A program made the position numbers and the translations under genes. Shown piece by piece: positions 26,177-55,665 of a DNA stretch of 64,000 bases. The notes under the pieces were generated by a model. That model saw only the letters and a program-made list of their open reading frames with translations, did not search any database and had not been told where the DNA came from. The stretch is taken from the NCBI GenBank assembly GCA_965219445.1, contig CBDCNQ010000005.1:288001-352000 (forward strand), given 5' to 3'. Position 1 is the first letter of the stretch, and every line of letters begins with the position of its first letter. The stretch comes from Longimicrobiales bacterium. Its GTDB lineage: Bacteria > Gemmatimonadota > Gemmatimonadetes > Longimicrobiales > Gaopeijiaceae.

Positions 26177-26260
26177 CGCGGACCCGTTGGGAGCCAATTG
26201 TGCGCGCAAGCCCACTATGTCGTATCATGACAGGCACGCTCCCGTGGCCCTGAGGCGCTC

Positions 26261-26329
26261 ATGCCTGATCCCGTCACCCGCCTGAACGCGGCCCTAGAAG
26301 GGTGCTACGCCACATTGAACGAGGGTTGA
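26261..26329 (+). pseudogene. Ser/Thr kinase 5' stub (MPDPVTRLNAALEGCYA...*)
   Basis: Matches the N-terminus of the kinase at 38297; stop codon lies 3 nt before the tannase start. Confidence 0.85.
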
Positions 26330-26332
26330 ACG

Positions 26333-27919
26333 GTGAAACGCTTTCTGATGATCGCGATCGCTATCATGGCCACGACACTCGCCGACGCCACTGCAGCCTC
26401 AGCGCGGGCCGGTGGGGAGGGGGGGGCGCTCGCGGGCGCCGACAACGTGTGGTGCGGAGATCTGACCTCGTCCTCGATTATGGAGGGGACCGTCACGAGC
26501 GCCGAAGTGGTCGAGACCGGGGCGTTCACGCCTCCGGTCGCATCAGGCGGTCGCGCCCCCTCGAGGGCTTCGGTGACCCGCACTTACGGTGCTTTGCCCG
26601 CGTTCTGCCGGGTGATCGCCACACTCCGACCCACGAACGATTCGAACATCACCGTCGAGGTGTGGATGCCGCTCTCGGGATGGAACGGAAAATACCAGGC
26701 GGTCGGGAACGGTGCGTTCAGGGGATCGATCAGTCATAGCGCCATGGCTGCCGCGCTGGCCAACGGCTACGCGACCAGCTCGACCGATACCGGGCATATC
26801 GGCAACACGGCAGAGTTTGGTCTCGATCATCCCGAGAAGGTCGTCGACTTCGGCTGGCGCTCGCTGCACCTGATGGCTGTCCTCACCAAGGAGGTCATCG
26901 CGGCTCATTACGATGAGGCTCTCCGCTACTCCTATTGGAACGGGTGTTCCGCCGGCGGCCGCCAGGCGATGAAGATGGCGCAGGCCTTTCCCGAAGACTT
27001 CGACGGCATCGTGGCCGGAGCACCGGGCCAGGATTGGAGCGGACGTGCAGCCGGAGCACTCCGAGTCGCCACGTATCTGGAATCCAACCCAGCCGCCCGT
27101 CTCTCCGAAGATGACAGATTGCTTGTGCATGCGGCGGCAATCAGCGCGTGCGACGCGGCTGATGGTGTCGTGGACGGCGTTATCGACAGCCCTCAGCGTT
27201 GTGATTTCGACCCCGCCGTCCTCCGATGTGAGGGTGCCAAGAACGGCTCCTGCCTGACGGCCGCACAGGTCGGGACCGTGCGGATGCTGTACACGTCCCC
27301 GGTGAATCCCAGCACCAACCGGGAGATTACCGGTCTGGTTCCGGGGAGCGAGCTCAACTGGACCGACCTCGGGTGGACCAACTCCGCACGCGCCACCGGC
27401 CTCGAACTTTATCGTTATCTGGTATACGGCGACCCCAACTGGACCATCGACCGATTCGATTTCGACACCGATATCGTGAAGGCGGAGGAGACCGACGACG
27501 AGACGCTGAATGCCCTCGATCCTGACCTCGAGCCGTTCTTCGCCCGGGGCGGCAAGTTGCTCGCGTATCACGGCTGGAGCGACGCGCAGATTTCACCCTT
27601 GAACGCCACCCAGTATTACGAGCGTGTGGTGGAATCCGTCGGGAGTGCCGAGGAAGTTCACGACTCGTATCGTCTGTTCATGGCGCCGGGCATGGGGCAT
27701 TGCGGCGGTGGTGAGGGACCCAGCGCTTTTGACAAGATGGCGCTAATTGAAGCGTGGGTCGAAGAGGGTCGAGCGCCAGACCGGGTGCTTGCGACCAAGT
27801 TCGGTCCGGAGGGCGAAGTGGAGATGCGCCGCCCGCTGTGCGCTTACCCGGCGAGGGCTGTTTACGACGGGAACGGAGACCCGAAAAGGGAGGATAGCTT
27901 CTCGTGCGCCACACGCTGA
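26333..27919 (+). CDS. Tannase/feruloyl esterase family hydrolase
   Basis: WNGCSAGG, YHGWSD and PGMGHCGGG (CS-D-HC motif); signal peptide. Confidence 0.92.
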   Translation: MKRFLMIAIAIMATTLADATAASARAGGEGGALAGADNVWCGDLTSSSIMEGTVTSAEVVETGAFTPPVASGGRAPSRASVTRTYGALPAFCRVIATLRPTNDSNITVEVWMPLSGWNGKYQAVGNGAFRGSISHSAMAAALANGYATSSTDTGHIGNTAEFGLDHPEKVVDFGWRSLHLMAVLTKEVIAAHYDEALRYSYWNGCSAGGRQAMKMAQAFPEDFDGIVAGAPGQDWSGRAAGALRVATYLESNPAARLSEDDRLLVHAAAISACDAADGVVDGVIDSPQRCDFDPAVLRCEGAKNGSCLTAAQVGTVRMLYTSPVNPSTNREITGLVPGSELNWTDLGWTNSARATGLELYRYLVYGDPNWTIDRFDFDTDIVKAEETDDETLNALDPDLEPFFARGGKLLAYHGWSDAQISPLNATQYYERVVESVGSAEEVHDSYRLFMAPGMGHCGGGEGPSAFDKMALIEAWVEEGRAPDRVLATKFGPEGEVEMRRPLCAYPARAVYDGNGDPKREDSFSCATR

Positions 27920-27959
27920 CGAGGCCGGGATAGAGAGGTCCGCCTGCGAGGCCGGAGCC

Positions 27960-30026
27960 TCAAGGAATGCTGAGCGCCACCAGCGCGCCGGGCACCGGCA
28001 GGATGATGCGCTGCCGCCCCTCGTGCATATAGGACATCATCCCGTACATCCCAAGGCCCGGCATCTCCAGGCTTCCCAGACGCTCGCCGGTCGCCTTGTC
28101 CACAGCGTAGAGGAACGGGGTATTCCCGTCCTCACCGCGAGCGGTATGAAGGAGCAAGCTCGGCGTCACCATCATGGCGGAGTGGGTCAGATTCCCCGTG
28201 GGAGGGATGTCCAACCCCCGCAACGCCGGGTGGTCCTGAATGAACTGCGGTGTACCCCCGTTCGGAATCCACCACAGACGCTCGCCGCTGTTCAGGTCGA
28301 TCGCGCTGATTCGGCTGTATGGCGGCTTTGTGAGCGGTAAGCCCTGGGGACCGGGAATACCGGCCGCACTGCCCCTCCACAGGGCATAATCCGGGACGGT
28401 CCTCCCTGTCGGTTGCCAGCTCGTCAGCTCGCCGTCCACCTCCTCTCCCGGTCCAACGATCCGCATCGCACAGTTCGTCCGTGAGACGACGTAAATGACT
28501 CCCGTTTGGGGGTCGGCTGCCGGTGGGCCGCTGATGTTGGTGCCGCCCAGTTCGCCGGGACACCAGATCGAGCCGACCAGCCCGTCGGGATTGTCCCGGT
28601 TCAGGGGCGGATTGAAGAGAGGCCCTAGCCGATAATCCGCCGTCATCTCCAGTGCCTCTCGCCGCAGCTCGGGCGTGAAGTCGATGAGGTCGTCCTCGGT
28701 AAGCCCTTGCAAATCGTACGGCGCCGGCTTGGTGGGGAACGGTTGGGTGCTCGATAACCGGTCGCCAGGAATCTCCGAGGGGGGCACGGGCCGCTCCTCA
28801 ATGGGCCAGATGGGCTCGCCCGTCTCGCGGTTGAAGGCGTAGATCATCGACTGTTTCGTGGCCTGGAACACCCCCGGAATCCTCTGCCCGTCCACCGTGA
28901 CATCCAGCAGAACCGGCGCCGTCGGGGTGTCGTAGTTCCAGATGTCGTGATGGACCAACTGGTAGTGCCAGATGCGTTGACCCGTCTGCACGTCCAGCGC
29001 GATGACGCTGGTGCCGAACAGGAGGTCCCCGGGACGCCAGCCCGCAGAGTAGTCTATCGTCCCTCCCTTCGTCGGGATGTAGACGATCCCGCGCTCCGGA
29101 TCGGCGGACATTGGCGCCCACGAGCCGATGTTGCCCGACCAGGCCCACGCATCGCTCTCCCAGGTGTCGTGGCCGAACTCGCCGGGCCGCGGGATCACGT
29201 GGAACTTCCAGAGGTGCTCGCCGGTCCGGGCGTCGTAGGCCACGATGTCGCCGGGGATGTTCTCGATCCGGGTCTGGTTCTGACCGTTTTCATGTGAGGT
29301 CCCCACGATCACTACACCGTTGACCACGATCGGAGGGGAGGACGCGGTGGCGTAGCCGATCTCGAGCGGGATCCCCTGGTACGGATCCCACGGCTGGTTG
29401 AGGCTCTCCCAGGGATCCCAGCCCCGGGCCTGATCTTCCAGGGCGTCCACCACTCCGGTCTGAGGGAAGCCCTCGATCGCCACCGGCCTCCCCCAGTTCT
29501 GTAGCGGCCGGCCCGTCTTGGCGTCCAGCGCCCAGAGGAAGCGAGCTGGGCTGATGCTGAAGATCACTCCCCGGCCGTCCACCTCGGCGTAAGCAACACC
29601 CTTTCCGTTGTTGGCCCGCATGGAATGCTCCCACCGGAAGGTGTCCGGCTCCCGGAAGCTCCAGATAATGACACCCGTGCCGGCATCGATGGCCACCACG
29701 CTCCGGCGATCCCCGGCCACGGTGTAGAGCACCCCGTCCACGTAGATGGGCGTGGAGCGGGCCAGGAGGACCCCAAAGCTGTCCCCTCTCCAGATCCACT
29801 CGACCTCGAGATTCTCGAAATTCGAGGCGTTGACCTGGTTTAGCGGCGAGTATCTGGTGTGCGAGGCGTCCCCGCCGATGTAGCGCCACTCCCCCCGCTC
29901 GGCCCCCTGCATGGATTGGGAAGTCTGGGCAGCACACGGCGCCGGCAGGGGAACCAAGATTCCGAGAGCCGCGGTGAGCCAGGCTCCGAGCAAGGGGAGT
30001 CTGAAGCCGTGCGTCTCTCTTCTCAT
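27960..30026 (-). CDS. PQQ-dependent dehydrogenase (glucose/quinate-type)
   Basis: TRYSPLNQ, HHDIWNYD, TQPFPTKP, KPPYSRISAIDL and MSYMHEGRQ. Confidence 0.9.
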   Translation of the reverse strand: MRRETHGFRLPLLGAWLTAALGILVPLPAPCAAQTSQSMQGAERGEWRYIGGDASHTRYSPLNQVNASNFENLEVEWIWRGDSFGVLLARSTPIYVDGVLYTVAGDRRSVVAIDAGTGVIIWSFREPDTFRWEHSMRANNGKGVAYAEVDGRGVIFSISPARFLWALDAKTGRPLQNWGRPVAIEGFPQTGVVDALEDQARGWDPWESLNQPWDPYQGIPLEIGYATASSPPIVVNGVVIVGTSHENGQNQTRIENIPGDIVAYDARTGEHLWKFHVIPRPGEFGHDTWESDAWAWSGNIGSWAPMSADPERGIVYIPTKGGTIDYSAGWRPGDLLFGTSVIALDVQTGQRIWHYQLVHHDIWNYDTPTAPVLLDVTVDGQRIPGVFQATKQSMIYAFNRETGEPIWPIEERPVPPSEIPGDRLSSTQPFPTKPAPYDLQGLTEDDLIDFTPELRREALEMTADYRLGPLFNPPLNRDNPDGLVGSIWCPGELGGTNISGPPAADPQTGVIYVVSRTNCAMRIVGPGEEVDGELTSWQPTGRTVPDYALWRGSAAGIPGPQGLPLTKPPYSRISAIDLNSGERLWWIPNGGTPQFIQDHPALRGLDIPPTGNLTHSAMMVTPSLLLHTARGEDGNTPFLYAVDKATGERLGSLEMPGLGMYGMMSYMHEGRQRIILPVPGALVALSIP

Positions 30027-30094
30027 CTCTCTTCTCCTCCTTCGCTTATTCGGCTCTGACGTCACCGCCAATCCCGGGTGGTGAAGGGCCGAAC

Positions 30095-32594: not shown

Positions 32595-34214
32595 TCAGGA
32601 GCTCCGTAGCGTGTGAATTGCCCACCCCAGGTCGAGGCTCTCTCCGTTCCAATGCGGGGTGGTGGTCGCAGGACCCACGCGGATCCCCAGTGTGGCGTGC
32701 TTGGACTGGAGGGCAGCCACGGGGTCGGCAGGGAGGCGCGACGCCGCGGGCACATTTGGGAACAGCCGTCCGTCGGGCCAGGAGAAGCGGATCCCTCCGC
32801 GGGCAGCTCCGTCGTCCCCATTCTCAACCATCTCGACCGCGAATCCCTCTTCATGCACCGCCCGGTGATGGCGCCTACAAAGCAAGACGAGGTTGTCGAG
32901 CCGGGTCTCTCCGCCATCCGCCCAGTGCTTGATGTGATGCGCGTCACAGAAGCGCAGCCCGCAGCCTGGGAAGCGACAGCCTCCGTCCCTATGGTCGAGC
33001 GCCCTCCGGATGGCGGGGGGGACGGTCCGGGTCTTTCTGCCCACGTCGAGCACGGAACCGCTCTGTGTGCGTGTTATCTCGGTACGCGTCATCTCGGCTG
33101 TCATGTTGTGTGTCATAATGACGCGACTCGCGTCACAAGCGAGGCGCCTCGACGTTCCCGCGGGAACGCGTACGCCGTCCTCGAGCAGGGCACTGCCCAA
33201 CGTTGGCGGTGACGACGAGGGCAGCGGCGGCGGCCACGACTCCGACGACTCCGGCAACTCCGATGATCCCGATGGTCCCGATGACTCCGATGATCCCGCG
33301 AGTGCTTCGGCGTCCACGTGCACGACGACTTGAAAGCGATCAGCGCGGCCGATACTCTCGCCGTCGCATTCCAGCCCACCACTCTGTAGCGCTCGCTCGG
33401 CGAGGAGTCCGATGGCATCGGCCCGCATCTGCTCGGCGGTGAGTTCCGGATCCTTGCGAGATTCCGGATCCTCGCGAGCCTCCGGACGCCGGAACTTCCC
33501 GGACCGTCGGTAGAGGGCACCCCTCGCGGCCTCGAGCGCCCGCATCAATATGGCGCCCACCTCGGGATCCAACCGGCCCCGGAGCTCATACATCCCGTCC
33601 TCGTCCGGCCATAACGTGAGCGAGCGGGTTCGGTGACGCTCCCGCTCCTGCCATTGCTCCTCCAGCCGGTCCACCCGCCGCCACGCACGCACGAGCTTCT
33701 CAACGTGCGACGCTGTACCGTGGCGGGCGAAGTCCATCAACTCCTCTTCGTTCTCCGGTGTGGCCACGCGCGTGAGGGCTCGTGCCTTGGAGTATGACAG
33801 TTCTCCGCTCCGCATCCTCGCGCTCAAACCGGGTAGATGCTCGAGAGCGTGGGCCACGCGGACCTTCTCGCGTGCCGGTCCCATGGCGATGCCGGTGCGC
33901 CAGCTCAGCCAGTGGGCGCAGGTCTTGAAGCTGGCGTCCCAGCCCCCTCGCTGGTCGAACTCACGGATCAGCACCAGCAGACGGTACGTGGCGGCATGGA
34001 TGTGGGCGGCGAGTTCGGCGATCTCATCGCCCAGCCGCTCGAGTTCGGCACGTGGGAAGGGGGTGGGGGCGGGCAGTGGGGTGGGGGATTCGACCGTTGC
34101 GGCAGTAGCAACGACGGGCCACGTCTCGGTCCGCGACCGAGCTCGGTGTGTCGTCGTCGAAGTTGTCGCCAGCGCGGTGTGATCTCCAAGTACCGGTTGA
34201 GCGAAGTCGATCAT
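32595..34214 (-). CDS. DUF222 (13E12-repeat-like) protein with C-terminal HNH endonuclease
   Basis: LAAHIHAATYRLL..FD..GGW; RRLACDA; CRFPGC...DAHHIKHWADGG...NLVLLCRRHH...H; GGAGG RBS. Confidence 0.88.
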   Translation of the reverse strand: MIDFAQPVLGDHTALATTSTTTHRARSRTETWPVVATAATVESPTPLPAPTPFPRAELERLGDEIAELAAHIHAATYRLLVLIREFDQRGGWDASFKTCAHWLSWRTGIAMGPAREKVRVAHALEHLPGLSARMRSGELSYSKARALTRVATPENEEELMDFARHGTASHVEKLVRAWRRVDRLEEQWQERERHRTRSLTLWPDEDGMYELRGRLDPEVGAILMRALEAARGALYRRSGKFRRPEAREDPESRKDPELTAEQMRADAIGLLAERALQSGGLECDGESIGRADRFQVVVHVDAEALAGSSESSGPSGSSELPESSESWPPPLPSSSPPTLGSALLEDGVRVPAGTSRRLACDASRVIMTHNMTAEMTRTEITRTQSGSVLDVGRKTRTVPPAIRRALDHRDGGCRFPGCGLRFCDAHHIKHWADGGETRLDNLVLLCRRHHRAVHEEGFAVEMVENGDDGAARGGIRFSWPDGRLFPNVPAASRLPADPVAALQSKHATLGIRVGPATTTPHWNGESLDLGWAIHTLRSS

Positions 34215-34582
34215 GCGGGGAGCCTCCAGGAGGGGGGAGCGGGTTATAGGGAATAGCTACCTTCCAGACGAATGACTCCCATAAATCTAACGGCGGTTTT
34301 TCGAGGCTCTGGCTGGCTTCTGGGCGGGCGTGGACGGGATTCGAGGCTTTCCGAAGGGTCCGGGGTTCGCCCTCGGCGGTCACGTCACAAGCCAGGTGTG
34401 CTCAGGGGGGGGGCCGGGGCAGGATCCCGGATCTCGGGAAAGGTGCCTGCTCGAACCTGTCAATGTCTGGATGGGACAGATTTCCCGATTGCTTGCAGCG
34501 GCGGACCATACGGGCGCATGTTGTCCGCTATATCGGATATATCGGACCCTGTCACCCGTTCACAGGCAGTGGAGCCGTACCA

Positions 34583-37228
34583 ATGACCGACGCCACCGTG
34601 GATCGCCTCAACACAGCCCTAGAAGGCCGCTACGCCATCGAGCGAAAACTGGGTGAAGGCGGCATGGCCGCGGTCTACCTGGCCGACGATCTCAAGCACG
34701 AGCGCAAAGTCGCGCTGAAGGTCTTGAAGCCCGATCTGGCTGCGGTCGTTGGGGCCGAGCGGTTCCTGGCTGAGATCAAGGTCACGGCGAACCTCCAGCA
34801 TCCACACATCCTGCCGCTCCACGATTCAGGCGAAGCGGATGGCTTCCTGTTCTACGTGATGCCCTACGTAGAAGGCGAGACCCTCCGCGACCGCATCGAC
34901 CGAGAGAAGCAGCTTCCTGTTGACGAAGCTGTCCGCATAGCGACGGCGGTGGCGGGTGCCCTCCAGACTGCTCACGAGCACGGCATCATCCATCGTGACA
35001 TCAAACCGGCCAACATCCTGTTGAGCCGAGGTGAGCCGTTGATCGCCGACTTCGGGATCGCTCTGGCTGTCGGTGCGGCAGGAGGTAGTCGGCTCACGGA
35101 GACGGGCCTGAGTATGGGCACTCCGTATTACATGAGCCCTGAACAGGCGACCGGTGACCAACACGTCGGCCCTTCGACCGATACGTACGCACTGGGCGCA
35201 GTGTTGTACGAGATGCTGACGGGCGACCCACCGTATATGGGGAGCACAGCGCAGGCGGTGCTGGGTCAGATCATCGCGGGCGAGGCTGTGTCCGCCACGA
35301 AGAAGCGTGGCTCGGTACCTGCGAACGTGGATGCGGCTCTCCGTTGTGCCCTGGAGAAGCTACCCGCTGACCGATTCCGGAGCGCGAGCGGCTTCGCTGA
35401 AGCGCTGACGAATCCGGGCTTTAGGACGAGCTCCGCTACGCGACCGGATACAGCTCGGTCGGGCACTCCGCGCCGCGTGGCCTCAGTCGGAGCTGCACTC
35501 CTCACGCTCGGAGTCGGATTCGTCGTGGGTCGGACATTCGGTGAGAGCGACAACTCGGTGACTAAGCTGATGATTCCTACCTCCCCGCAGCTGCGCGTCG
35601 GTTTTGGTCCGGCGGTGGCGGTCTCGCCCGACGGCTCAGAGTTCGTGTATGTCGGAGTCGAGGGGGGTGGCATCGCCGCGGACATGAACCGTGCCAACCC
35701 CGATAGGAGGCTCTTTCGTCGTCGGCTCGCCGATCTCGAGATTTCGGCGATTCCGGGTACGGAACGAGCGTACGAACCGACCTTCTCGCCCGATGGCGAC
35801 TGGGTCGCGTTCGTGGCTGATGGCAGGCTCTGGAGGGTAAGCCTCGACGGGAATCGTCGTATTGAGATCGCTGATGTCTCTGCCGCCGAGATGCGGGGGA
35901 TCAGCTGGAGCAGCACGGACGAAATCTTCTACGTCCCGGCCGGCACGGCCGGGCTCATGAAAGTCTCAGCAGCGGGGGGTACGCCGGAGGTGGTGATTCC
36001 GTTGGATACCGTGGGCCTGAGGTGGCCCAACGTCCTCCCGAGTGGGGACGCAGTCATGGTGACCATCTGGAACGGGAGCGTGGAGAACGCCGAGCTAGGA
36101 GTGGTCGATGTGGCCTCGCAGCGTCTCATACCGTTGGGTGAGCGAGGGATGGGGTCCGTCTACGCCGAGTCGGGGCATGTCGTCTACGTGCGTGCGGACC
36201 GAACGTTGCTCGCCGCCCCCTTCGACCTTCGAACCCGTACCATCACCGGGGCACCCGAGCCCCTCGAGGATAGCGTCTCCATTTACCCCGGTGGTGCGTC
36301 GCACTTCGCGCTCTCCCGCCAGGGAACGCTCGTGTATTGGCGGCTTCATCTGCCGCTACGATCCCTCTTGCTCGTCGACCGGGGAGGCTTGGTGGTGCGA
36401 ACGATCGGCACGGACACGCGCTTTGACACAGGTCGACCAGCGATTTCCCCGGATGGAGCCCGGTACCTGGTTCCCCTCGTGGGCGCGGTCAGCAACGCAG
36501 ACATCTGGGTGGGCGATCTGACCCAGGAGAATCTACGCCCCTTCGAGGAACAGGGAGATGTCAACTCCGGCATTTGGCTGGGAAACGATTCGATCGCGTT
36601 CCTTTCCGATAGGGCCGGTTCACCAGACTGGTTCGTTGGTGCCGTTGACGACCGGAGTCCCGCCACTCAGCTCTTTGCAGACGATATCGACCAGTGGGGT
36701 GGCACCTGGGTGCCCTCAGCCCGAACTCTGGTTTTCGGCGAAACACGAATAAGCTCCGGTTACGACATTTCGGGATTCCAGCTCGGGTCGGACTCTCCAT
36801 TCACCCTGCTTGACGGGGCAGGAATCGACGAGTGGCAACCTCGTGTTTCGGCCGACGGCGCATGGCTGGTCTATGCGTCGGATGAAATCAACGGCCGGAG
36901 CGAGATCTTCGTCCAGCGGTTCCCCGATCTCACTGGCAAACGGCGCGTTTCGACCGGCGGGGGAGACGCGCCGACATGGTGTCCGCAGCGGAAGGAGTTG
37001 TTCTACGTAATCGCTGACAGCCTAGTCTCTGTGACATACGACGACGCCGAGGAATTCGACATCTTGGACCGGACGGTCCTGTTCACTTCTGACCTCGTGA
37101 GAAACACCTACGACGTTCATCCCGACTGTGAGACCTTCATCATGTTGAGAGATGACGAGGAGGAGCGGCGCGACATTGTAGTCGTCCAGAACTTCTTCGA
37201 GGAGCTTCGCCAGCGGGTGGGGAATTAA
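34583..37228 (+). CDS. Hanks-type Ser/Thr kinase with TM helix and TolB/PD40-like beta-propeller
   Basis: GEGGM, VALK, HRDIKPAN, DFG and GTPYYMSPE; SPDG repeats; ends QNFFEELR. Start at ATG 34583 after GGAG. Confidence 0.93.
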   Translation: MTDATVDRLNTALEGRYAIERKLGEGGMAAVYLADDLKHERKVALKVLKPDLAAVVGAERFLAEIKVTANLQHPHILPLHDSGEADGFLFYVMPYVEGETLRDRIDREKQLPVDEAVRIATAVAGALQTAHEHGIIHRDIKPANILLSRGEPLIADFGIALAVGAAGGSRLTETGLSMGTPYYMSPEQATGDQHVGPSTDTYALGAVLYEMLTGDPPYMGSTAQAVLGQIIAGEAVSATKKRGSVPANVDAALRCALEKLPADRFRSASGFAEALTNPGFRTSSATRPDTARSGTPRRVASVGAALLTLGVGFVVGRTFGESDNSVTKLMIPTSPQLRVGFGPAVAVSPDGSEFVYVGVEGGGIAADMNRANPDRRLFRRRLADLEISAIPGTERAYEPTFSPDGDWVAFVADGRLWRVSLDGNRRIEIADVSAAEMRGISWSSTDEIFYVPAGTAGLMKVSAAGGTPEVVIPLDTVGLRWPNVLPSGDAVMVTIWNGSVENAELGVVDVASQRLIPLGERGMGSVYAESGHVVYVRADRTLLAAPFDLRTRTITGAPEPLEDSVSIYPGGASHFALSRQGTLVYWRLHLPLRSLLLVDRGGLVVRTIGTDTRFDTGRPAISPDGARYLVPLVGAVSNADIWVGDLTQENLRPFEEQGDVNSGIWLGNDSIAFLSDRAGSPDWFVGAVDDRSPATQLFADDIDQWGGTWVPSARTLVFGETRISSGYDISGFQLGSDSPFTLLDGAGIDEWQPRVSADGAWLVYASDEINGRSEIFVQRFPDLTGKRRVSTGGGDAPTWCPQRKELFYVIADSLVSVTYDDAEEFDILDRTVLFTSDLVRNTYDVHPDCETFIMLRDDEEERRDIVVVQNFFEELRQRVGN

Positions 37229-37273: not shown

Positions 37274-38173
37274 ATGGATGACGAAAAAACAATCATCACC
37301 CGGAAATCGGTGCTCGAGGACGAGGGGCTCGACAAAAGTCATGCCTCCTTGATCGTCCTAAAGGGCGCGGAGATCGGCCGGGACTTTCGTCTGCGAAAGA
37401 ACACTATGGTCATCGGGCGCAGTACGACGGCCGATATCTGTCTACCGGATGACAAAGCATCCAGAGAGCATGCTCGCATCGATTATCAAGGGACGGGTAA
37501 AGACCAGCGAGCGATCTTCACCCTCACCGATATGGGGAGCACGAATCACACCTTCGTTGATTCAAAACAGGTGGAATCCGTCCAGCTTCAAGATGGAGAC
37601 AAGATTCAGATCGGTGACTCGGTATTGAAATTCGTTGTCCTCGACAACATCGAAGCCAGATTTCACGCAGATGTCCGCGACCTGATTTCCTACGATCAGC
37701 TCACAGGCTTGTTGACGAAGGAATCCCTCTACTTGGCCTTTGATAGAGAGCTGAAACGGTGCCTGCGCTACGGCCTTCCCCTTGGGGTTTTGATGATGGA
37801 CCTGGATTTCTTCAAATCAGTAAACGACGGGCATGGCCATCTGATGGGGAGCCATGTGCTGGCTGAAGTCGGGCGTCTCATCCAACAATCCATCCGTATC
37901 GCCGATGTTTCCGCACGCTACGGGGGAGAGGAATTCCTCAGTTATTTGGCGGAGACCGATACTGCGGGAGTCGAACTCGCCGGAGAACGCATTCGAAGCG
38001 AAATCGAGGCCTTCCCCTTCGTCTTGGATGACGTAAGCATTCACGTCACCATCAGCATCGGCATTGCTGTGGCCCCGAGGCACGGGGAGAATATCAAAAC
38101 CCTCGTGGCTGCGGCCGATCAAGCACTCTATCGTGCAAAGGAAACCGGACGGAACCGGGTGTGCATCGCATAA
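37274..38173 (+). CDS. FHA-domain diguanylate cyclase
   Basis: FHA motifs IGR, SREH and STN; DLDFFK..ND..GH; RIAD I-site; RYGGEEF. Confidence 0.9.
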   Translation: MDDEKTIITRKSVLEDEGLDKSHASLIVLKGAEIGRDFRLRKNTMVIGRSTTADICLPDDKASREHARIDYQGTGKDQRAIFTLTDMGSTNHTFVDSKQVESVQLQDGDKIQIGDSVLKFVVLDNIEARFHADVRDLISYDQLTGLLTKESLYLAFDRELKRCLRYGLPLGVLMMDLDFFKSVNDGHGHLMGSHVLAEVGRLIQQSIRIADVSARYGGEEFLSYLAETDTAGVELAGERIRSEIEAFPFVLDDVSIHVTISIGIAVAPRHGENIKTLVAAADQALYRAKETGRNRVCIA

Positions 38174-38296
38174 CCCGAGAAGTTCGCGGGCACGCCATTC
38201 CTCTCGATGGGGATGCGAAGACGCTTGCAGCCTCACACGTCTTGGACGAATGTTTCAGCTGGTATCTAGAAGAGAAATCGCACCCGCCGACAGCCT

Positions 38297-41020
38297 ATGA
38301 CTGATCCAGTCACCCGCCTAAACGCAGCCCTCGAAGGCCGCTACTCCATCGAGCGTGAGATAGGCGAAGGCGGCATGGCCACGGTATACCTGGCCAAGGA
38401 CCTGAAGCACAACCGCAACGTCGCGCTCAAGGTTCTCAAGCCCGACCTGGCGGCTGTGGTCGGCGCCGAACGCTTTCTCGCTGAAATCGAGACCACCGCG
38501 AACCTGACTCACCCGCATATCCTGCCGCTGCACGATTCGGGCGAAGCGGATGGCTTCCTGTTCTATGTGATGCCCCACATCGAAGGGGAATCGCTCCGGG
38601 AGCGGATCGACCGCGAGAAGCAACTCGGTGTGGATGACGCACTGGCGATCACGCAGAAGGTTGCGGGCGCACTCGACTACGCGCACGAGAACGGCGTCGT
38701 GCACCGCGACATCAAGCCGGGCAACATCCTACTGAGTGAGCGGGGAGAGCCCCTCATCGCAGACTTCGGTATCGCGCTGGCCGTGGCTCAGGCGGGCGCT
38801 GGGCGCATCACCGAAACCGGCCTCAGCCTCGGGACGCCCCACTACATGTCGCCCGAGCAAGCAACGGGCGACCGAGATGTCGATCCCCGCTCGGATGTCT
38901 ACGCGCTCGGCTGTGTGCTGTACGAGATGCTCGCCGGGCAGCCGCCCTTCTCGGCCACTACAGCCCAAGCGGTGCTGGTGAAGATTCTCACGGTGGATGC
39001 ACCGTCGATCACGAATGAGCGCAGGTCCGTGCCGCTCAACGTCGGCCATGCACTCGCGAGGGCTCTGGAAAAGCTGCCCGCCGACCGCTTCGCGAGCGCG
39101 GCTGAGTTCGCGGCGGCGCTCGGGGATGAGAGCTTCACGTACAGAGTGCGAGCTCAGACATCCGTAATGGCCTCGACCCCGGGGTCGGTGGGCACGCAGG
39201 CGCTGGCCGCGACGCAGGGCACCTGGAATCGGCTGACGGTCGCCTTCGCGACCACCGCCATCCTCCTTGCAGGGTTGGCCGCCTGGGACTGGCTCCGTCC
39301 CGCACCGCAAGCTCCGGCGGTCTACGCCACTCGCCTCCCCATCGACGTTGGTGAGATTGAAATTGGCCGGTTTGAGGAAATCGTCGTGTCGCCGGACGGC
39401 TCACGCTTCGCCGTGACAGGGACGGTTGAAGGCGAGCGGGCTCTATACTGGCGGAGCGCCGATGAGGAGAGCTTCCGAGTGGTCCCTGGAACGGGGGGCG
39501 CTCGCGGAGCGACGTTCTCTCCTGACGGAGATTGGATCGCATATGGCACCGTAGACGGTGCCCTCTTGAAGGTGTCGCTGTCGGGAGGTGCACCGGCTCT
39601 TCTAGTCCGAGCGGGGCGTGTGAGTCAGCTGGTGTATTTCCCCCATTGGGGCGATGACGAGACGATAGTATTTGGCAATCCGATCGGCTCGTTCCAGGTA
39701 CCCGAGACGGGTGGTGAGCTCACGCCTCTCAGCGCGCCAGAGCCGATTCTATTTCCCCATCAGCTTCCGGGTGGCTGGGCGGTGCTCGGAAGCCGGGTCG
39801 CTGGCGGAGTCGTCCTGCTGGATCTCCAGTCAGACACCATGCGCGAGTTGCATCCAATCGGCTTCAAACCGAAATACGTAGAAACGGGCCATATCCTGTA
39901 TCTCGATGGCTCCGGTGGCCTGTGGGCGCTCCCCTTCGATGGAGCGAATGGCGACGTGCTAGGGGATGCCGTCCCGATCTTGGACGGAGTGAGTGTCATA
40001 CCGTTCGGACAATACCGTTTCCCTCGCTATTCGGTCTCGCGAAACGGAACGCTGACGTATGCTGCGGGAGGTGGTGCTGGTGGCGGAGGAGCGGAGTGGC
40101 CGCTCGTGGTAGTGGATCTGGAGGGTAATGAAGAGACTCTCACCCTGAGCCCACGAAGCTTCGGCGAAGTGGCTTGGTCTCCGGATGGACGGTCGGTCGT
40201 TTACCAGAGCACCGCCGAGGGCGATCAGGACCCCGACATCTATACCTACAACGTTGAGACGGGGACGACGCCGAGGCAGCTCACGTTCGAGGGAATCAAC
40301 GTCCGCCCAGTGTTTTCGTCTGACGGGACCCGCGTCGCCTTCGCCTCACAACGGGAATGGACCGACGGATTCGATCTGTTCGTGAAGACCCTGGGCGACG
40401 ACGCGCCGGCTAGATCCCTCATCTCGCGCCCCGGGGATGAATACCCGACCCAATGGCCGTCCGAGACGCTGATCGTGTTCGAGCAGGGGCCGAATCCCTC
40501 GGATCTCTGGATGCTCGATCTCTCAAACCCGGACAGCGTGAGAGCCGAAGTGTACCTACCCCTGGAAGCTGACCTCGACGACATCGTGGTCTCCCCAGAC
40601 GGTGCCCTCGCGGCGTATGCGTCCAACGAGTCGGGAAGTGATGAGATCTACATCCGGAGCTTTCCTGAACCCGGTGAACGGACACTCGTGTCGCAGGGTG
40701 GAGGGCAATACCCCCTCTGGTCACCGGACGGCAACACCGTCTACTACTGGGGCCTATCGGAAATTCCGGGAGCCCAGGACACCTTCATGGCTGCCCGCAT
40801 TCAACGAGATCCGACGCCGGTGGTGCTGACCAGGGACTCCTTGTTCACGGGGGAATACTACCGACCCGGCTCAGACCTCCATCCCGACGGGGACCGTGTG
40901 GTAGTCCCGCGAACTCCAGACCAAGCAGCCACCGACCTGGAAGGCGTGGCTTCAGGGTCAGAGCGATTCCTGGTCGTCACGAACTGGTTCGAGGAGCTTC
41001 GCGGGCGGGTGGGCAATTGA
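38297..41020 (+). CDS. Hanks-type Ser/Thr kinase with TM helix and TolB/PD40-like beta-propeller
   Basis: GEGGMATVY, HRDIKPGN, DFG and GTPHYMSPE; ends NWFEELR. Confidence 0.93.
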   Translation: MTDPVTRLNAALEGRYSIEREIGEGGMATVYLAKDLKHNRNVALKVLKPDLAAVVGAERFLAEIETTANLTHPHILPLHDSGEADGFLFYVMPHIEGESLRERIDREKQLGVDDALAITQKVAGALDYAHENGVVHRDIKPGNILLSERGEPLIADFGIALAVAQAGAGRITETGLSLGTPHYMSPEQATGDRDVDPRSDVYALGCVLYEMLAGQPPFSATTAQAVLVKILTVDAPSITNERRSVPLNVGHALARALEKLPADRFASAAEFAAALGDESFTYRVRAQTSVMASTPGSVGTQALAATQGTWNRLTVAFATTAILLAGLAAWDWLRPAPQAPAVYATRLPIDVGEIEIGRFEEIVVSPDGSRFAVTGTVEGERALYWRSADEESFRVVPGTGGARGATFSPDGDWIAYGTVDGALLKVSLSGGAPALLVRAGRVSQLVYFPHWGDDETIVFGNPIGSFQVPETGGELTPLSAPEPILFPHQLPGGWAVLGSRVAGGVVLLDLQSDTMRELHPIGFKPKYVETGHILYLDGSGGLWALPFDGANGDVLGDAVPILDGVSVIPFGQYRFPRYSVSRNGTLTYAAGGGAGGGGAEWPLVVVDLEGNEETLTLSPRSFGEVAWSPDGRSVVYQSTAEGDQDPDIYTYNVETGTTPRQLTFEGINVRPVFSSDGTRVAFASQREWTDGFDLFVKTLGDDAPARSLISRPGDEYPTQWPSETLIVFEQGPNPSDLWMLDLSNPDSVRAEVYLPLEADLDDIVVSPDGALAAYASNESGSDEIYIRSFPEPGERTLVSQGGGQYPLWSPDGNTVYYWGLSEIPGAQDTFMAARIQRDPTPVVLTRDSLFTGEYYRPGSDLHPDGDRVVVPRTPDQAATDLEGVASGSERFLVVTNWFEELRGRVGN

Positions 41021-41036: not shown

Positions 41037-41747
41037 GTGCAAACGATAATCGAGTGGCTGGGCACATGGATCAACAGCGGGTTCGGCCTGGCTCTTCGGC
41101 TTGACCTCCTCGTTCGACTGGCGCTGGCCGTCGTCCTCGGTGGAGCGATTGGATGGGAGCGCGAGGCCAGTGGCAAACCGGCGGGGTTGCGGACCAACAT
41201 CTTGATTTGTGTGGGTGCGACTCTGCTCACCGATTTGTCCATCCGCTTCGGCGGACTCGCGATAGGCCGTGGAATCGGAGATCCAGCGCGCATCGCCGCT
41301 CAGATCGTAACGGGCATCGGGTTTCTCGGAGCGGGTACGATCATTCAGGCGCGTGGCACCGTTACCGGACTCACGACAGCGGCAACCCTCTGGGTCGTCG
41401 CGGGGATCGGCATGGCGGTAGGGAGCGACTCCTACGTCGAAGCCGTGGGAGCAACGCTGCTCGTGCTCGTCGTTTTGATTCTGCTGACACCGATGGAGAA
41501 GGCCATCGCCCTCCGTCGTCCGGCACATTTCCGGATAGTTCTCGAACCCGTTGCCGGTGCCGGTGAGATCGTGGAAGAGGACGTCCTGGAGGTGGGCCTG
41601 CGGATCATTCGCCGGCGAATCGAAAAGGACGCCAAGCTTCGGTCTGTCATTCTGCATCTTTGGGTCAGGGGTCGGCCGAAGGACATACGGGTGGCGCAGG
41701 AGCGATTGGTGGTGAGAGAGGACGTCGCGGGCTTCTACATAGACTAA
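41037..41747 (+). CDS. MgtC/SapB family membrane protein
   Basis: IGWERE...AGLRT; DPARIAAQIVTGIGFLGAG; GLTTAATLW. Confidence 0.9.
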   Translation: MQTIIEWLGTWINSGFGLALRLDLLVRLALAVVLGGAIGWEREASGKPAGLRTNILICVGATLLTDLSIRFGGLAIGRGIGDPARIAAQIVTGIGFLGAGTIIQARGTVTGLTTAATLWVVAGIGMAVGSDSYVEAVGATLLVLVVLILLTPMEKAIALRRPAHFRIVLEPVAGAGEIVEEDVLEVGLRIIRRRIEKDAKLRSVILHLWVRGRPKDIRVAQERLVVREDVAGFYID

Positions 41748-41768: not shown

Positions 41769-41900
41769 TTGCGCCTAGCGGCCCACACTCGGATGTTGAG
41801 CGCAGTCTGATCCCGGAGTGCGTGCATGTCCGATCCAGTCGCTCGCCTGAACACCGCCCTCGAAGGCCGCTACGCCGTCGAGCGTGAGCACGACCGATGA
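41769..41900 (+). pseudogene. Kinase promoter plus 5' stub (MSDPVARLNTALEGRYAVERE...*)
   Basis: 119-bp near-copy of 55498-55616; ATG at 41826; its TGA overlaps ATG 41897. Confidence 0.85.
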
Positions 41901-44137: not shown

Positions 44138-44288
44138 GAACGCTCCTTGCCAGTCGACCAAACGGCCCGAATGATAGCCACTTTGGCGCCTCACCGGCAC
44201 CCGAATACCGGGTGCTCGCCATGCTGTGTCGTCGTGGAGGAGCTGGTCCGGGTCTACCGCTAGGTTGTGGGTGCCCCTAGAGCCGCAC

Positions 44289-44356
44289 GCGGCCCTAGAA
44301 GGCCGCTACTCCATCGAGCGAGAGCCCGGCGAAAGCGGAATGGCGACGGTCTACCG
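44289..44356 (+). pseudogene. Kinase 5' stub lacking its start (AALEGRYSIEREPGESGMATVY)
   Basis: Near-identical in translation to the start of the 38297 kinase. Confidence 0.85.
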
Positions 44357-51695: not shown

Positions 51696-53765
51696 ATGCG
51701 AAGCCCCCTATGGTTCCTGAATCCTTCCAAGCTCCCATACCTCTTGGCAATGGTGTTCTCGATTGCGCTGGTCAGCTCGATCCCGATCTCCGCCCAGCAG
51801 CCGGGGACACCGTACGGGGAGTGGCACTATCAGAGCGGGGACGCGTCGGGTACGAGGTACTCGCCGCTGAACCAGATCCACGCGGGCAACTTCGAGGACC
51901 TCGAGGCGGCGTGGACTTTCCGTGGGGGCAATTACGGAGAGACGCCGACGCCGCAGTCCCGGTCGACACCAACCTATATCGACGGAATCCTTTACACGGT
52001 GGCGGGCGAGCGGCGCACGGTGGTCGCGATGGATCCGGCGACGGGGGAGATCCTGTGGACCTTCCGCGAGCCGCATACACGGCGGTGGGAGCGGTCGATG
52101 CGGAGGAATTACGGGAAAGGAGTTTCGTACGGGGAGCTGGACGGCCGGGGGGTGATCTACATTCAGACTCCGGCGCTGTTCCTGTGGGCGCTGGACGCGA
52201 AGACGGGGCTTCCCCTGGAGAACTGGGGGACGCCCGTGGATCTTCCGGGCTTCGAGACGGGTGTGATCGACCTCATCCCCGACATCGCGAGAGGGCAGAT
52301 CCCATGGGAGGAGTGGCTGCGGGGAGGGAACACCTTCGATCCCGACCAAGGGACTCCGCGGGAGATCGGATACGTGACGAGCTCGTCGCCCCCGATCTTC
52401 GTGAACGGTGTGGTGGTGGTGGGGAGCAGCGCGGAGCAGGGCTACAACCAGACCCGCGTTGAGAACCTGGCCAACGACATCGTGGCGTACGACGCCCGGT
52501 CGGGCGAGCACCTCTGGAAGTTCCACGTGATCCCGAGGCCGGGGCAGGTGGGCCACGAGACGTGGGAGAACGAGGCTTGGATGTGGACGGGAGACATCTC
52601 CTCCTGGGCACCGATGACGGCGGACCTGGAGCGGGGGATCGTCTACATCCCGACGAACCCTCCCACGATCGATTACTTTGGCGGTTTCCGGCCGGGTTGC
52701 AACCTCTTCTCCATGAGCGTGATCGCCCTGGACGTGCAGACGGGCGAGCGGGTTTGGCACTACCAGACCGTCTGCAACGATCAGTGGAACTACGATCTCC
52801 CGCACCCCCCGATCCTGGCGGATTTGACGGTGGACGGGCGGGAAATCCCGGCGGTGATCCAGATCCCGAAGAACGGGCTCATCTTCACTCTGAACCGGGT
52901 GACGGGGGAGCCGGTTTGGCCGATTGTGGACGTGCCGCAGCCCCAGACGCAGGTTCCGGGGAACTGGACGTCGCCGACGCAGCCGATCCCGACGCGGCCG
53001 GAGCCGTTGGACCTCCTCGCGCGGGACGGGCTGACTGAAGAGCACCTCATCGACTTCACGCCCGAGCTCAAGGAGGAAGCGCTCGAGATCCTGAGCCAGT
53101 ACCGGGTGGGTGGCCCCTACATGCCGCGGCTCCAGATAGACCACGGCCTGGACATCATTGGGGCCATCGGTTGCTCAGGCGGGCTGAACATCACCAATCC
53201 CCCCATCTTCGACCCGACCACGAACGTCATGTACGCATCGCACGGGCCGGCATGCCCTAACAGGGCCAGCGCGTTTCTGAGGCCCGGCTGGGAGTTGGAC
53301 ACCCCCGATGATCCGGCGACGACGGGTGTGACGATCTCGGACTGGGTGAATGGTCCAAGCATGGTCCTGCGGGGGCCGCGGGGGCTACCGATCTTCAAGC
53401 CGCCGTACAACCTGCTGTCCGCCTATGACATGAACGCGGGCGAGCGGCTCTGGTCGGTGCCGATCGGAGAGACAGCGGAGAACGTCAGGAACCACCCGGC
53501 GCTCGAGGGCGTGGATACCTCGGCGTTCGGAGGCGGCGCCAAATCGATCCAGATGGTGATGGGCGACCTTATCCTCACCACTGGGTACGCCCCGGTTCTC
53601 CACGCCCGCGACAAGCGGACGGGCGAGATCCTGGGTGAGGTGGAACTTCCGGTGCGCGGACAGTACGGGATGATGAGCTACATGCACGAAGGGAGGCAGT
53701 ACATCGTCGTGCAGATCGGAGGGGCCGAGTACCCCGGCTCCCTGGTGGCGCTCAGGCTACCGTGA
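51696..53765 (+). CDS. PQQ-dependent dehydrogenase (paralog of 27960-30026)
   Basis: TRYSPLNQ, WKFHVIPRPG, WNYD, KPPY and MMSYMHEGRQY. Confidence 0.9.
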   Translation: MRSPLWFLNPSKLPYLLAMVFSIALVSSIPISAQQPGTPYGEWHYQSGDASGTRYSPLNQIHAGNFEDLEAAWTFRGGNYGETPTPQSRSTPTYIDGILYTVAGERRTVVAMDPATGEILWTFREPHTRRWERSMRRNYGKGVSYGELDGRGVIYIQTPALFLWALDAKTGLPLENWGTPVDLPGFETGVIDLIPDIARGQIPWEEWLRGGNTFDPDQGTPREIGYVTSSSPPIFVNGVVVVGSSAEQGYNQTRVENLANDIVAYDARSGEHLWKFHVIPRPGQVGHETWENEAWMWTGDISSWAPMTADLERGIVYIPTNPPTIDYFGGFRPGCNLFSMSVIALDVQTGERVWHYQTVCNDQWNYDLPHPPILADLTVDGREIPAVIQIPKNGLIFTLNRVTGEPVWPIVDVPQPQTQVPGNWTSPTQPIPTRPEPLDLLARDGLTEEHLIDFTPELKEEALEILSQYRVGGPYMPRLQIDHGLDIIGAIGCSGGLNITNPPIFDPTTNVMYASHGPACPNRASAFLRPGWELDTPDDPATTGVTISDWVNGPSMVLRGPRGLPIFKPPYNLLSAYDMNAGERLWSVPIGETAENVRNHPALEGVDTSAFGGGAKSIQMVMGDLILTTGYAPVLHARDKRTGEILGEVELPVRGQYGMMSYMHEGRQYIVVQIGGAEYPGSLVALRLP

Positions 53766-53892
53766 GCACCGGAAGAGGAGGCTTCGGGCTCCATGGCTTG
53801 GCGTCTCCGTGGAAGGCGTGGTGATCGTCGGGTCGGTCCACAATTAGGAGGACCCGCTCGCGGTTTGCGGGTCCGGGGCGCATGGTGAGCGC

Positions 53893-54111
53893 ATGAGCGA
53901 CCTCGACCCAGTCACGCGTCTGAACGCCGCCCTGGAGGGCCGCTTCGCCTCGGCGGAGGGGTTCGCCGATTCGAACGTCTCCCAACAATTCGACCCCTCA
54001 CCCGACGATCAGCGTCTCCTCGCGATCCGCATCAGTACCGCTGGCACGCAAGTTCGAGACGTCATCATCCAGAACTTCTTCGAGGAGTTGAGGGAAGTGG
54101 TACCGGAGTGA
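53893..54111 (+). pseudogene. Collapsed Ser/Thr kinase (72 aa: N-terminus, end of kinase domain and C-terminus in frame)
   Basis: DPVTRLNAALEGR | FASAEGFA | ...FDPSPDDQR...IIQNFFEELREVVPE. Confidence 0.85.
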
Positions 54112-54159
54112 ACGACGATTCCATCAGCCGCCTGAACGCCGCCCTCTGAACGCCGCACT
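54108..54159 (+). pseudogene. Kinase 5' stub (VNDDSISRLNAAL*) ending in a 14-bp tandem duplication
   Basis: GTG overlaps the previous stop; CTGAACGCCGCCCT followed by CTGAACGCCGCACT. Confidence 0.7.
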
Positions 54160-54871
54160 TCAAGCTTTGGGCCGCCGCCTCAGGGCCTCCAGAGCGTGTG
54201 AATCGCATAACCCAAGTCGAGGGGCTCTCCGTTCCAACGCGGGGTGGTGGTCTCAGGACCCACGTCGATCCCCAGTCTGCCGTGCTTGGACTCCAGGGCG
54301 GCCACCGGGTCGGCGGGGAGGTGCGACGCCGGCGGCGCATCGGGGAAGAGCCGTCCGTCGGGCCAGTAGAAGAGGACATTTCCGCGGGCATCCCCGCCCT
54401 CACCCCTGTCTCTTCCTCCTCCCGGGTCCCGCACGATCTCGACCCTGAACCCCTCTTCGTGCACTGCCCGGTGATGGCGCCGACAGAGCAGGACGAGGTT
54501 GTCGAGCCGGGTCTCTCCGCCATCCGCCCAGTGCTTGATGTGATGCGCGTCACAGAAGCGCAGCCCGCAGCCTGGGAAGCGACAGCCTCCGTCCCTATGG
54601 TCGAGCGCTCTGGGGATGGCGGGGGGTACGGTCCTGGTCTTTCTGCCCACATTGAGCACCGAGCGGTCCGAACCGTGCGTTATGATCACGCGACTCGCGT
54701 CACAAGCGATGCGCCTCGACGTTCCCGCGGGAACGCGTACGCCGTCCTCTAGCATGGCACCGCCCAACGTTGGCGGTGACGACGAGGGCGACTCCGGCGA
54801 CGATATCGGATTCGGACCCTGTCACCCGTTCGCAGGCAGTGGAGCCGTACCAATGACCGACGCCACAGTGG
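54160..54871 (-). mobile_element. Second, internally deleted DUF222-HNH unit (HNH half, 54180-54790) plus the same divergent kinase leader
   Basis: Shares left end TCAAGCTTTGGGCCGCCG with 32575; HNH region near-identical to copy 1; 54803-54871 matches 34530-34601. Confidence 0.7.
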
Positions 54872-54909
54872 CAACGGGAATCGCTAATGAACTGGGATAC
54901 CATCGTTGA
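54853..54909 (+). pseudogene. Kinase 5' stub (MTDATV...NELG...*)
   Basis: Same leader and first 6 residues as the kinase at 34583. Confidence 0.75.
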
Positions 54910-55013
54910 CATCCGGGGGAGCAAATCGAGTATTGAAGAGGGTCATATAGTTCAGCCAATCAACACGCCTCGCCTCGGGGGCGGGTTCGAGAGAGAACCC
55001 GGAGGTGGTAGTC

Positions 55014-55415
55014 ATGTCCCTGTCTCGTATCTTCTCTTCCGTCGTGGTGTGCCTGTCTCTCAGTGCGTGTACGACCGTCTTGGCGGCCCCCTCTTCCGGG
55101 TCCCGCCCCGTTGCCCGCAGTACGGCGAGGGCACTCGGCATTCCGCCGGGTCATCTGCCGCCACCGGGTGAGTGCCGAGTCTGGATTCCAGGGAGGCCCC
55201 CGGGCAGGCAGGCAAGGCCCCGAAGCTGTGATGGCATCATGGCCGTGGCTCCGGGCGGCTCGTGGGTGCTGTACCGCCCCGGACGAAGCCGCAAGGAGGT
55301 TGGCGTCCGCCACATACATTCGGACCGGGCGGGCGTGGTGGTCCAAGTCCGTATCTTCCAAGCGGATACCGGAGAGTTCCTTCGCGAGGAGCGACCCGGA
55401 CGAAGCCACCGCTGA
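55014..55415 (+). CDS. Hypothetical lipoprotein
   Basis: GGAGG RBS; lipobox LSAC; GIPPGHLPPPGECRVW..GRPPG.Q. Confidence 0.7.
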   Translation: MSLSRIFSSVVVCLSLSACTTVLAAPSSGSRPVARSTARALGIPPGHLPPPGECRVWIPGRPPGRQARPRSCDGIMAVAPGGSWVLYRPGRSRKEVGVRHIHSDRAGVVVQVRIFQADTGEFLREERPGRSHR

Positions 55416-55497
55416 CGTAACACGCGGCCTAGTCTCGATACCGAATCAACACCGAATCGCTTAGAAGGCGATTCTGTGGCGTCTGACGGGTTTCTGC

Positions 55498-55665
55498 TTG
55501 CGCCTACCGGCCCACTCTCGGATGTTGAGCGCAGTCTGAACTCGGAGTGCGCTCATGTCCGATCCCGTCGCCCGTCTCAACGCGGCCCTCGAAGGCCGCT
55601 ACGCCATCGAGCGTGAACTTGGCGAGGGCGGCATTCAGAATCCAGTAAGCCTCCCAAGGAGTTAG
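55498..55665 (+). pseudogene. Kinase promoter plus 5' stub (MSDPVARLNAALEGRYAIERELGEGG...*)
   Basis: ATG at 55555 and TAG at 55663-55665, 4 nt before the cupin ATG. Confidence 0.88.

Follow-up and report, generated by a model that had tools for sequence, protein, structure and literature searches.

Truncated receptor kinase genes and their unrelated neighbours in a Longimicrobiales genome

Kinase genes and kinase gene starts in the window

A stretch of 64,000 nucleotides (nt) from the genome of a Longimicrobiales bacterium (assembly GCA_965219445.1, contig CBDCNQ010000005.1, positions 288,001 to 352,000), here called the window, contains two intact genes of an expanded family of PknB-like receptor serine/threonine (Ser/Thr) kinases and a series of truncated copies (stubs), several of which stand before a gene of unrelated function (cargo). 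The genome (G000, 4.56 Mb in five contigs, the window being C5:288001-352000) was compared with congeners of the same genus (G004 to G008 and others), 12 genus genomes being used for pattern searches, and gene positions around stubs are those of gene calls made in this analysis. The recurrent unit is a 5' module, which consists of a promoter-like motif and the first 10-45 kinase codons, conservation starting ~40-60 nt upstream of the ATG. A DNA profile of this module (60 nt upstream plus 150 nt coding, built from 17 long G000 kinases) has nine matches in the window, all on the plus strand; simulated windows with matching dinucleotide composition, 30 in number, yield no match. Three promoter motif types, termed short, long and third, are each found on intact kinases and stubs alike. 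The short type has -35-like and -10-like hexamers with the ATG 7 nt further on and, judging by sigma-70 spacing, would yield a leaderless message; the long type has a short leader with a ribosome-site-like word.

Kinase 1 (34583..37228, plus strand, 881 residues) and kinase 2 (38297..41020, plus strand, 907 residues; best solved relative PknB, E 4e-54) are full-length, with a PknB-like kinase domain, a hydrophobic stretch and a PD40 propeller. Promoter-plus-stub pieces precede both of them: a short-type motif with a nested decayed stub before kinase 1 (34492..34560, plus strand) and a short-type motif before kinase 2 (38224..38254, plus strand). Behind kinase 1 lies an FHA-GGDEF gene (37274..38173, plus strand) and behind kinase 2 an MgtC-family gene (41037..41747, plus strand), while a DUF222-HNH gene identified by domain search (32595..34214, minus strand) diverges from kinase 1.

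The stubs, all on the plus strand, begin with a short-type motif and seven kinase codons (19221..19277; a weak profile match at E 0.06, the motif being found by direct inspection). A third-type motif with a 17-codon stub (26216..26312, ATG at 26261) precedes a tannase/feruloyl esterase gene (26333..27919, plus strand), of which G006 and G007 have 95-97% identical copies behind other promoter types. A long-type motif with a 21-codon stub (41769..41889, ATG at 41826) has a stop overlapping the ATG at 41897 of a pyrroloquinoline quinone (PQQ)-propeller gene, which is a deleted pseudogene. The copy at 44287..44355 lacks the promoter and codons 1-8 and comprises codons 9-31, between a divergent oxidoreductase gene and the 3' end of a minus-strand gene. 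Further on lie a collapsed kinase of 72 residues (53893..54111), a 12-codon stub the start of which overlaps the stop of the collapsed kinase, a remnant of a tandem pair (54108..54147), and a stretch (54160..54871, its parts not on a single strand) that partly duplicates the DUF222-HNH gene together with the kinase 1 start and to which the stub at 54853 belongs; the broken second DUF222-HNH copy has the start of kinase 1 attached to it. A predicted lipoprotein gene (55014..55415, plus strand; known from its translation, overlapping frames having no Pfam match) follows that stub, and a long-type motif with a 27-codon stub (55498..55634, ATG at 55555) precedes a cupin-like gene (55670..56221, plus strand), of which G008 has an 89% copy without a kinase stub. 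The 55498 promoter copy folds strongly (z -4.1), and a strong inverted repeat runs from its -10 motif across the start codon (55515-55560), the arms of which vary in other copies. The window has no Rfam match at gathering score.

An earlier note on this DNA, made from the sequence alone, had listed module copies at 26261, 34583, 38297, 41826, 44289 (placed at 44287 here), 53893, 54108, 54853 and 55555, with a nested one at 34542. All are present on the plus strand, with kinases 1 and 2 full-length, the 53893 gene collapsed and the stubs ending at codons ~6-31, as it had described. Its comparison of the 41769 and 55498 copies was also correct (13 of 119 nt differ, with four synonymous codon changes), there being two non-synonymous changes as well. 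That each copy heads an unrelated block is true of several; the FHA-GGDEF and MgtC genes instead trail the 3' ends of intact kinases, and neither the LPMO-like gene (44374-45195; a weak label, Pfam LPMO_10 E 0.009, under cut-off) nor the HNH piece (54180-54767) is headed by a copy, since both are on the minus strand and the stub meets their 3' ends. The note had overlooked the promoter-plus-stub pieces at 19221-19277 and before both full kinases, the promoter role of the module, and a 3' kinase remnant (termed E3) at 53790-53845.

The junctions could in principle be assembly chimeras at a repeat, an outcome that the note had named as fatal to its proposal: the assembly is metagenomic, the repeat copies are 80-90% alike and no single outside contig spans the whole stretch. 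However, contigs from two other studies bridge window junctions (54837-55354, 55591-56277 and 41366-41948, with 0-21 differences), covering the junctions at 54871, 55635 and 41769-41889 and the left edge of the 44287 copy, and congeners that were assembled independently, one of them as a single closed contig, have identical junctions. The tannase junction (left of 37000) is backed by two other genomes rather than by outside contigs. The repeats of the window are real and not an assembly artefact, and chimeric joining has almost no probability left as an explanation.

The kinase family and its 5' module in the genus

The closest titled relatives of these kinases in a similarity search are from Longimicrobiales and other Gemmatimonadota. 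G000 has 19 frames with the kinase catalytic motif and 72 module profile matches with E no higher than 1 (64 in the 5' part at E <0.1), spread over all five contigs and both strands. The first 60 kinase residues are matched in 10 of 11 congeners, 48 times in one single-contig genome, and 15-17 times in two other genera of the same family. A genome-wide and congener search of the kind that the note had proposed therefore finds the module recurrent, dispersed over all contigs rather than in a single array, and an array specific to the window is rejected. No account of such kinase-stub arrays in Gemmatimonadota was found in a literature search thin on subscription papers; the accessible portions of PMC10581226 and PMC2884548 hold nothing on this kinase family or such stubs.

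Orphan matches are concentrated at the 5' end of the gene: consecutive 25-codon tiles from the gene start match 55, 30, 26, 22, 23, 22, 19 and 18 places, with similar paralog identity across the tiles (0.71-0.85). Within the kinase domain, detection bias as the sole cause of this polarity is rejected, since internal tiles of equal conservation match far fewer orphans there; outside it, in the poorly conserved propeller, such bias may play a part. Similarity at four-fold sites is highest in codons 1-30 (0.61), compared with 0.40-0.57 in the rest of the kinase domain, mostly 0.3-0.4 in the propeller and 0.32 at random, a pattern that repeated exchange would give and that selection on the first codons could give too. 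Of 36 stubs in G000, 24 have a co-oriented gene coming next (control 0.58), and behind 13 of the 36 the following gene begins within 100 nt (control 0.19).

Stub ends were scored for 85 stubs in four genomes. They spread over 23-425 nt without base preference, 75 of the 85 lying within 140 nt. Random breakpoints, another outcome that the note had held to count against it, are thus in part observed, the ends being scattered over codons 8-140 with no motif; random orientation, which it had named likewise, is not, neighbouring modules being co-oriented as described below.

The same promoter family precedes unrelated genes, as expected of mobile promoters or promoter capture. The module might be a small mobile or self-duplicating element, made of the promoter and first codons, that lands before genes. 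The promoter type that comes after one oxidoreductase gene differs in each of four genomes, some remnants fused to cargo consist of the promoter only, and one promoter type is repeated along arrays in G004, all of which would suit such an element. On the other hand, it would have no fixed right end and no terminal repeats, at least four promoter types are involved, all of them also present on intact kinases, and the copies form nested lengths up to full genes. Hallmarks of miniature inverted-repeat or other small transposons are likewise missing, with ragged 3' ends, several unrelated left ends and no empty site found that could reveal a target duplication. An element of this kind is very unlikely. 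At the oxidoreductase gene, a short inverted repeat upstream (window 44200-44230) marks the homology edge in the four genomes, beyond which each has a different kinase promoter type or remnant.

The 3' remnant and the loss of kinase bodies

Contigs from other studies that joined kinase ends to window position 53794 led to the recognition of a second conserved element. The 3' remnant consists of the last ~16-17 codons of the kinase and the start of a downstream partner gene (E3), the E3 copy in the window being degenerate (53790..53845, plus strand). E3 consists of ~50 nt behind the stop of many kinases and holds the first ~18 codons of the gene for a partner membrane protein, the partner gene start overlapping the kinase stop. 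G000 has 18 matches, and an E3 pattern has 74 matches in 9 of the 12 genus genomes, 35 of them without mismatch, compared with none for a reversed control. In none of 30 E3 contexts inspected is the partner full-length, two running in frame into other genes, while diverged full-length relatives of ~260 codons are encoded in G008 and G024; the partner gene, like the kinase, thus survives as a 5' stub. E3 was also considered as a structured RNA, a reading that found no support, three of four copies folding at the level of shuffled sequences with no Rfam match.

Some stubs form by deletion. In the collapsed gene at 53893, the first codons are joined in frame to the kinase-domain end at a 5-nt shared word, followed by the C-terminus, and at a locus with both flanks in common G006 has a full-length broken kinase with E3 where G000 has a collapsed kinase. 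Replacement of the kinase body is observed as a state, in the occupied slots described next, rather than as an event.

Arrays, orientation and two-ended slots

Modules, kinase ends and E3 gather in single-strand clusters. All 20 pairs of neighbouring 5' modules within 15 kb in G000 are co-oriented (gene background at 10 kb, 0.55), as are 20 of 24 pairs in G005-G007, pairs inside one cluster not being independent in either count. Replication strand was considered as a cause, and the GC skew of G000 is weak and patchy with no clear pattern. Among 88 modules with a co-oriented element within 7 kb, counted in G000 and 46 stretches chosen for carrying modules or E3, the kinase is intact or nearly so in 38, another 5' module comes next in 27, the kinase is collapsed in seven, and non-kinase DNA precedes a kinase end or E3 in 16. 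In G004, a sulfatase gene and an FG-GAP gene are each the sole gene in a slot bounded by a stub on one side and by the last ~17 kinase codons with E3 on the other, and a 16-kb stretch of G006 has stubs or E3 at most gene borders. Orthologous loci differ in fill, as at the xerD flank in G005 versus G007, and where G000 has kinase, E3 and core genome while G007 has cargo, E3 and core genome. Co-oriented arrays with remnants of displaced genes, which characterize homology-anchored exchange, are thus present.

Much of this could follow from decay alone: tandem kinases would lose their bodies, stubs would be kept because the genes behind them depend on the promoter and a non-polar leader, and general illegitimate recombination or transposons would move the units with the stub as a passenger. 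The seven collapsed kinases among the 88, the orthologous locus that is full-length but broken in G006 and collapsed in G000, the short shared words at some joins and the scattered breakpoints all agree with such a course; tandem ancestry by itself yields co-orientation, and gene order is scrambled even for module-free genes. Decay with promoter retention accounts for part of the data and surely contributes alongside any exchange. As a complete explanation it is unlikely, since it does not account for single foreign genes between both retained kinase ends, nor for one junction kept in register with different promoter types or with the coding sequence of another paralog, as found in the comparisons that follow.

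Shared stub-cargo junctions and probable movement of units between loci

For genes of the window, counterparts of 85-97% identity lie at unrelated places in five congeners, where no gene order is held in common. Out of 15 stub pairs with a common cargo (eight cargo groups; one overlapping self-pair was dropped from 16), 13 differ in the upstream flank. Stub cargos of relatives that are found in G000 also follow a module there in 10 of 21 cases, compared with 26 of 3824 genes overall, whereas only 4 of 20 upstream flanks of relatives precede a module in G000. By these counts the tie between stub and cargo is stronger than that between the stub and its neighbour on the upstream side.

Five cases share a junction behind a different promoter or paralog. 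The tannase gene has one junction, at nt 59, in both G006 and G007, behind a long and a short promoter with start codons in register; the six differences between these stubs all lie in the first 38 nt, the last 21 being identical, and in the window a shortened form of the junction lies behind a third-type promoter. G007 L155 and G000 C2:413363 have the same junction with 98% identical cargo (8 of 400 positions differ), the kinase parts differing at 31 of 200; the C2:413363 kinase part is nearer to intact kinase 2 (184/200) than to its junction partner L155 (169/200). An insertion of 37 kb splitting one kinase between the stub at C2:376227 and the piece at C2:413363, which meet at codon 76, is rejected because the piece at C2:413363 has flanks of its own and a junction in common with G007 L155. 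Between L153 and C4:283485, 13 of 94 stub positions differ versus 17 of 400 cargo positions, and in the amidase pair (L138 and L168) and the pair L152 and C5:542002 the promoter type is switched at a kept junction. Where stub pairs have the upstream flank in common, few of their bases differ (1 of 45 and 0 of 85); stubs are therefore not simply fast-drifting. Recurrence of identical junctions behind different left sides supports recombination inside the stub. The idea of a recombination anchor, as the note had put it, holds up in the light of these related genomes, in which the same stub-cargo junction is seen behind different promoter types, paralogs and neighbourhoods.

An amidase-family lipoprotein gene illustrates a further outcome. 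It has its own start in the window (3299-4879), and its signal-peptide front is swapped in frame for a kinase stub in G006 (L138) and G007 (L168). New protein starts are thus created.

Recombination functions and integrases

RecA, MutS and ComEC are encoded by single-copy genes in G000 and three congeners. An integron integrase (C2:398571-399551, L180), over the TIGR02249 cut-off, is encoded in G000; it is found in 6 of the 12 genus genomes and in all six high-quality genus genomes searched, with two stops in G006. G000 also has 66 tyrosine-recombinase matches, many of ~400-450 residues and in near-identical copies. The note had stated that there was no integrase in the window, which indeed has no tyrosine recombinase match, but the genome has its single IntI on another contig, so that none adjoins the array.

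A site-specific recombinase acting in trans, whether this integrase or a tyrosine recombinase, might insert DNA at the kinase 5' end or at E3, later erosion blurring the sites. Besides the presence of such enzymes, the nearly invariant E3 DNA, in which a 9-bp hairpin is possible, could speak for it. The 85 stub ends, however, show no preferred base, and GTT or AAC, as expected of a fixed G/TT crossover, is near only 12 of them. A crude scan of our own for attC gave 22 raw matches, of which seven fold with fair energy; not one of the 22 belongs to an array or coincides with a module. Modules do not lie closer to recombinase genes than randomly chosen places do (4 of 55 within 5 kb versus 11.7%), and E3, of which three of four copies fold no better than shuffled sequences, begins a protein-coding gene that has full-length relatives. 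Such a recombinase is quite improbable, and the term 'integron-like' used in the note was too strong, there being no fixed crossover, no attC found and no single array, and some stubs being simple deletion scars. Modules are not enriched near transfer RNA (tRNA) genes either (7 of 64 within 5 kb versus 7.9% at random), and no tRNA gene, as a tRNA or transfer-messenger RNA (tmRNA) target would require, lies within 100 kb of the window. A group of ~17 tRNA genes on one strand is present elsewhere in G000 (C3:31920-34215).

A proposed mechanism

The documented features of the system are an expanded family of paralogs that are conserved at the 5' and 3' ends, kinase genes collapsed through deletion, non-kinase DNA lying between retained ends, a common junction behind promoters, paralogs and neighbours that differ, and single-strand clusters. 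The explanation that we consider probable is that each kinase gene is a slot, the body of which is often lost or gives way to unrelated genes, while the conserved ends stay as a promoter of the incoming gene and as short handles for RecA-type recombination that moves stub-cargo units from slot to slot. Cargo would first be captured by illegitimate joining, either through deletion or through a one-sided anchored insertion. A donor piece starting with a stub, entering perhaps by natural transformation, could find its pairing partner in the 5' end of any kinase or stub already in the genome, and its far end could join illegitimately or by way of a kinase end, E3 or a following kinase. Later spread would proceed by homologous crossover inside the 35-140-nt stub, and at the 3' end where present. 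Such events would keep the resident promoter and force the orientation, and their repetition could produce rows; the cargo would be transcribed from the retained putative promoter. This model accounts for the polarity, the co-orientation, the promoter switches and the two-ended slots.

Several observations weigh against this explanation. Module-free genes are equally scattered between genomes, so that shuffling is general in the genus and does not require the module. Some cargos occur elsewhere without a module or with a different junction, from which it follows that capture recurs. The difference between tannase stub and cargo (6/59 versus 26/399 positions, p 0.22) is not significant alone, nor is the same comparison at L127 (p 0.24), and only two of the five shared-junction cases are. 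One four-genome group carries its own promoter along and breaks upstream of the module, and the right end of the tannase block has no kinase element in G000 and G006. No cassette with both identical junctions was found at two loci with different flanks; the nearest case is a paralog pair in G004 that is split over contigs and has different 3' joins. The slot count comes from selected loci. Stubs lack a co-oriented cargo within 250 nt in 28 of 70 cases, and fusion or stop-start coupling of stub and cargo is seen in 28 of 42 cases versus 43 of 84 wrong-frame controls (p 0.07), only a trend towards translational coupling as a selected trait. With regard to the machinery, MutS is intact, DprA is split over two frames in G000 as assembled (C4:555522-556144), and ComEC has a stop in G007. 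Intact MutS should hinder exchange at 80-90% identity.

A bolder form of the proposal, possible but doubtful, is that both kinase ends constitute a genus-wide cassette system without an integrase, in which caught genes would be portable and ready-expressed, could be swapped or added at dozens of slots in any congener, and in which the family would be kept large partly as landing pads.

The slot model offers a testable route to an organised flexible genome without dedicated recombination sites, in which a signalling gene family would double as expression-ready landing sites for unrelated enzymes and surface proteins. In annotation, small kinases or novel N-termini would be called in error where such stubs and fusions lie.

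Other genes in the window

PQQ-dehydrogenase paralogs (53-1732, 27960-30098 and 51663-53765) belong to a large multi-copy family of the genus that could also be a recombination handle. An exported protein of 393 residues without a Pfam match (24212-25393) has many 70-85% copies in each of five congeners. An IS3-type transposase pair (helix-turn-helix and integrase core domains) is encoded at 62329-63578.

Comparison with known systems

Integrons contain promoter-proximal, co-oriented, mostly single-gene cargo units. The kinase stubs resemble them in all three respects, but no attI or attC was found (the attC scan being crude), and there is no fixed crossover, no linked integrase and not one promoter but many. 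As proteins, the kinases resemble the mycobacterial PknB-type receptor Ser/Thr kinases in their layout, with a hydrophobic stretch and then an outer domain behind the kinase domain (E 4e-54 to PknB), but differ in that the outer domain is a PD40 propeller and in the 15-20 or more paralogs per genome.

The effector-immunity arrays of Vibrio cholerae's type VI secretion system (T6SS) and the orphan modules of Rhs and contact-dependent inhibition (CDI) loci are attributed to homology-facilitated illegitimate recombination in PMC5361080, which is also the source for anchored illegitimate recombination in Streptococcus. A conserved upstream one-sided anchor is proposed there, co-oriented arrays with remnants are found without evidence of an integrase, and the authors likewise draw the parallel to integrons (PMC5361080). 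Their modules are homologous in function, leave 3' orphans and lie in three fixed clusters (PMC5361080), whereas in the present arrays the cargo has no relation to the anchor gene, the orphans are 5' and carry a promoter, and dozens of slots are dispersed. In the lpl cluster of Staphylococcus aureus, similarly, a conserved stretch in each paralog is the crossover site and the moving unit spans gene borders, but the process described in PMC2568036 shuffles parts among paralogs in one cluster, with neither uptake of unrelated genes nor stubs. The five shared-junction cases, with a conserved anchor common to the units and crossovers inside it, are of the T6SS, Rhs and lpl type.

The additive flexible genomic islands of Alteromonas also have near-identical cassettes in different backgrounds, with partial target-gene repeats marking additions; their targets, according to PMC4898812, are mostly tRNA or tmRNA genes with site-directed integration, whereas the ends here are ragged and not enriched at tRNA genes. 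Putative mobile promoters, as described in PMC3575422, share with the modules a single promoter family before unrelated genes, but that survey excluded paralogous coding sequence, whereas here the donor family is known and coding stubs and the 3' end are kept. Homology-anchored exchange at decayed kinase genes, together with promoter reuse, is a variant of these known processes; what sets it apart from those cases is the unrelated cargo, the 5' orphans with expression signals, the second retained end and the dozens of dispersed slots.

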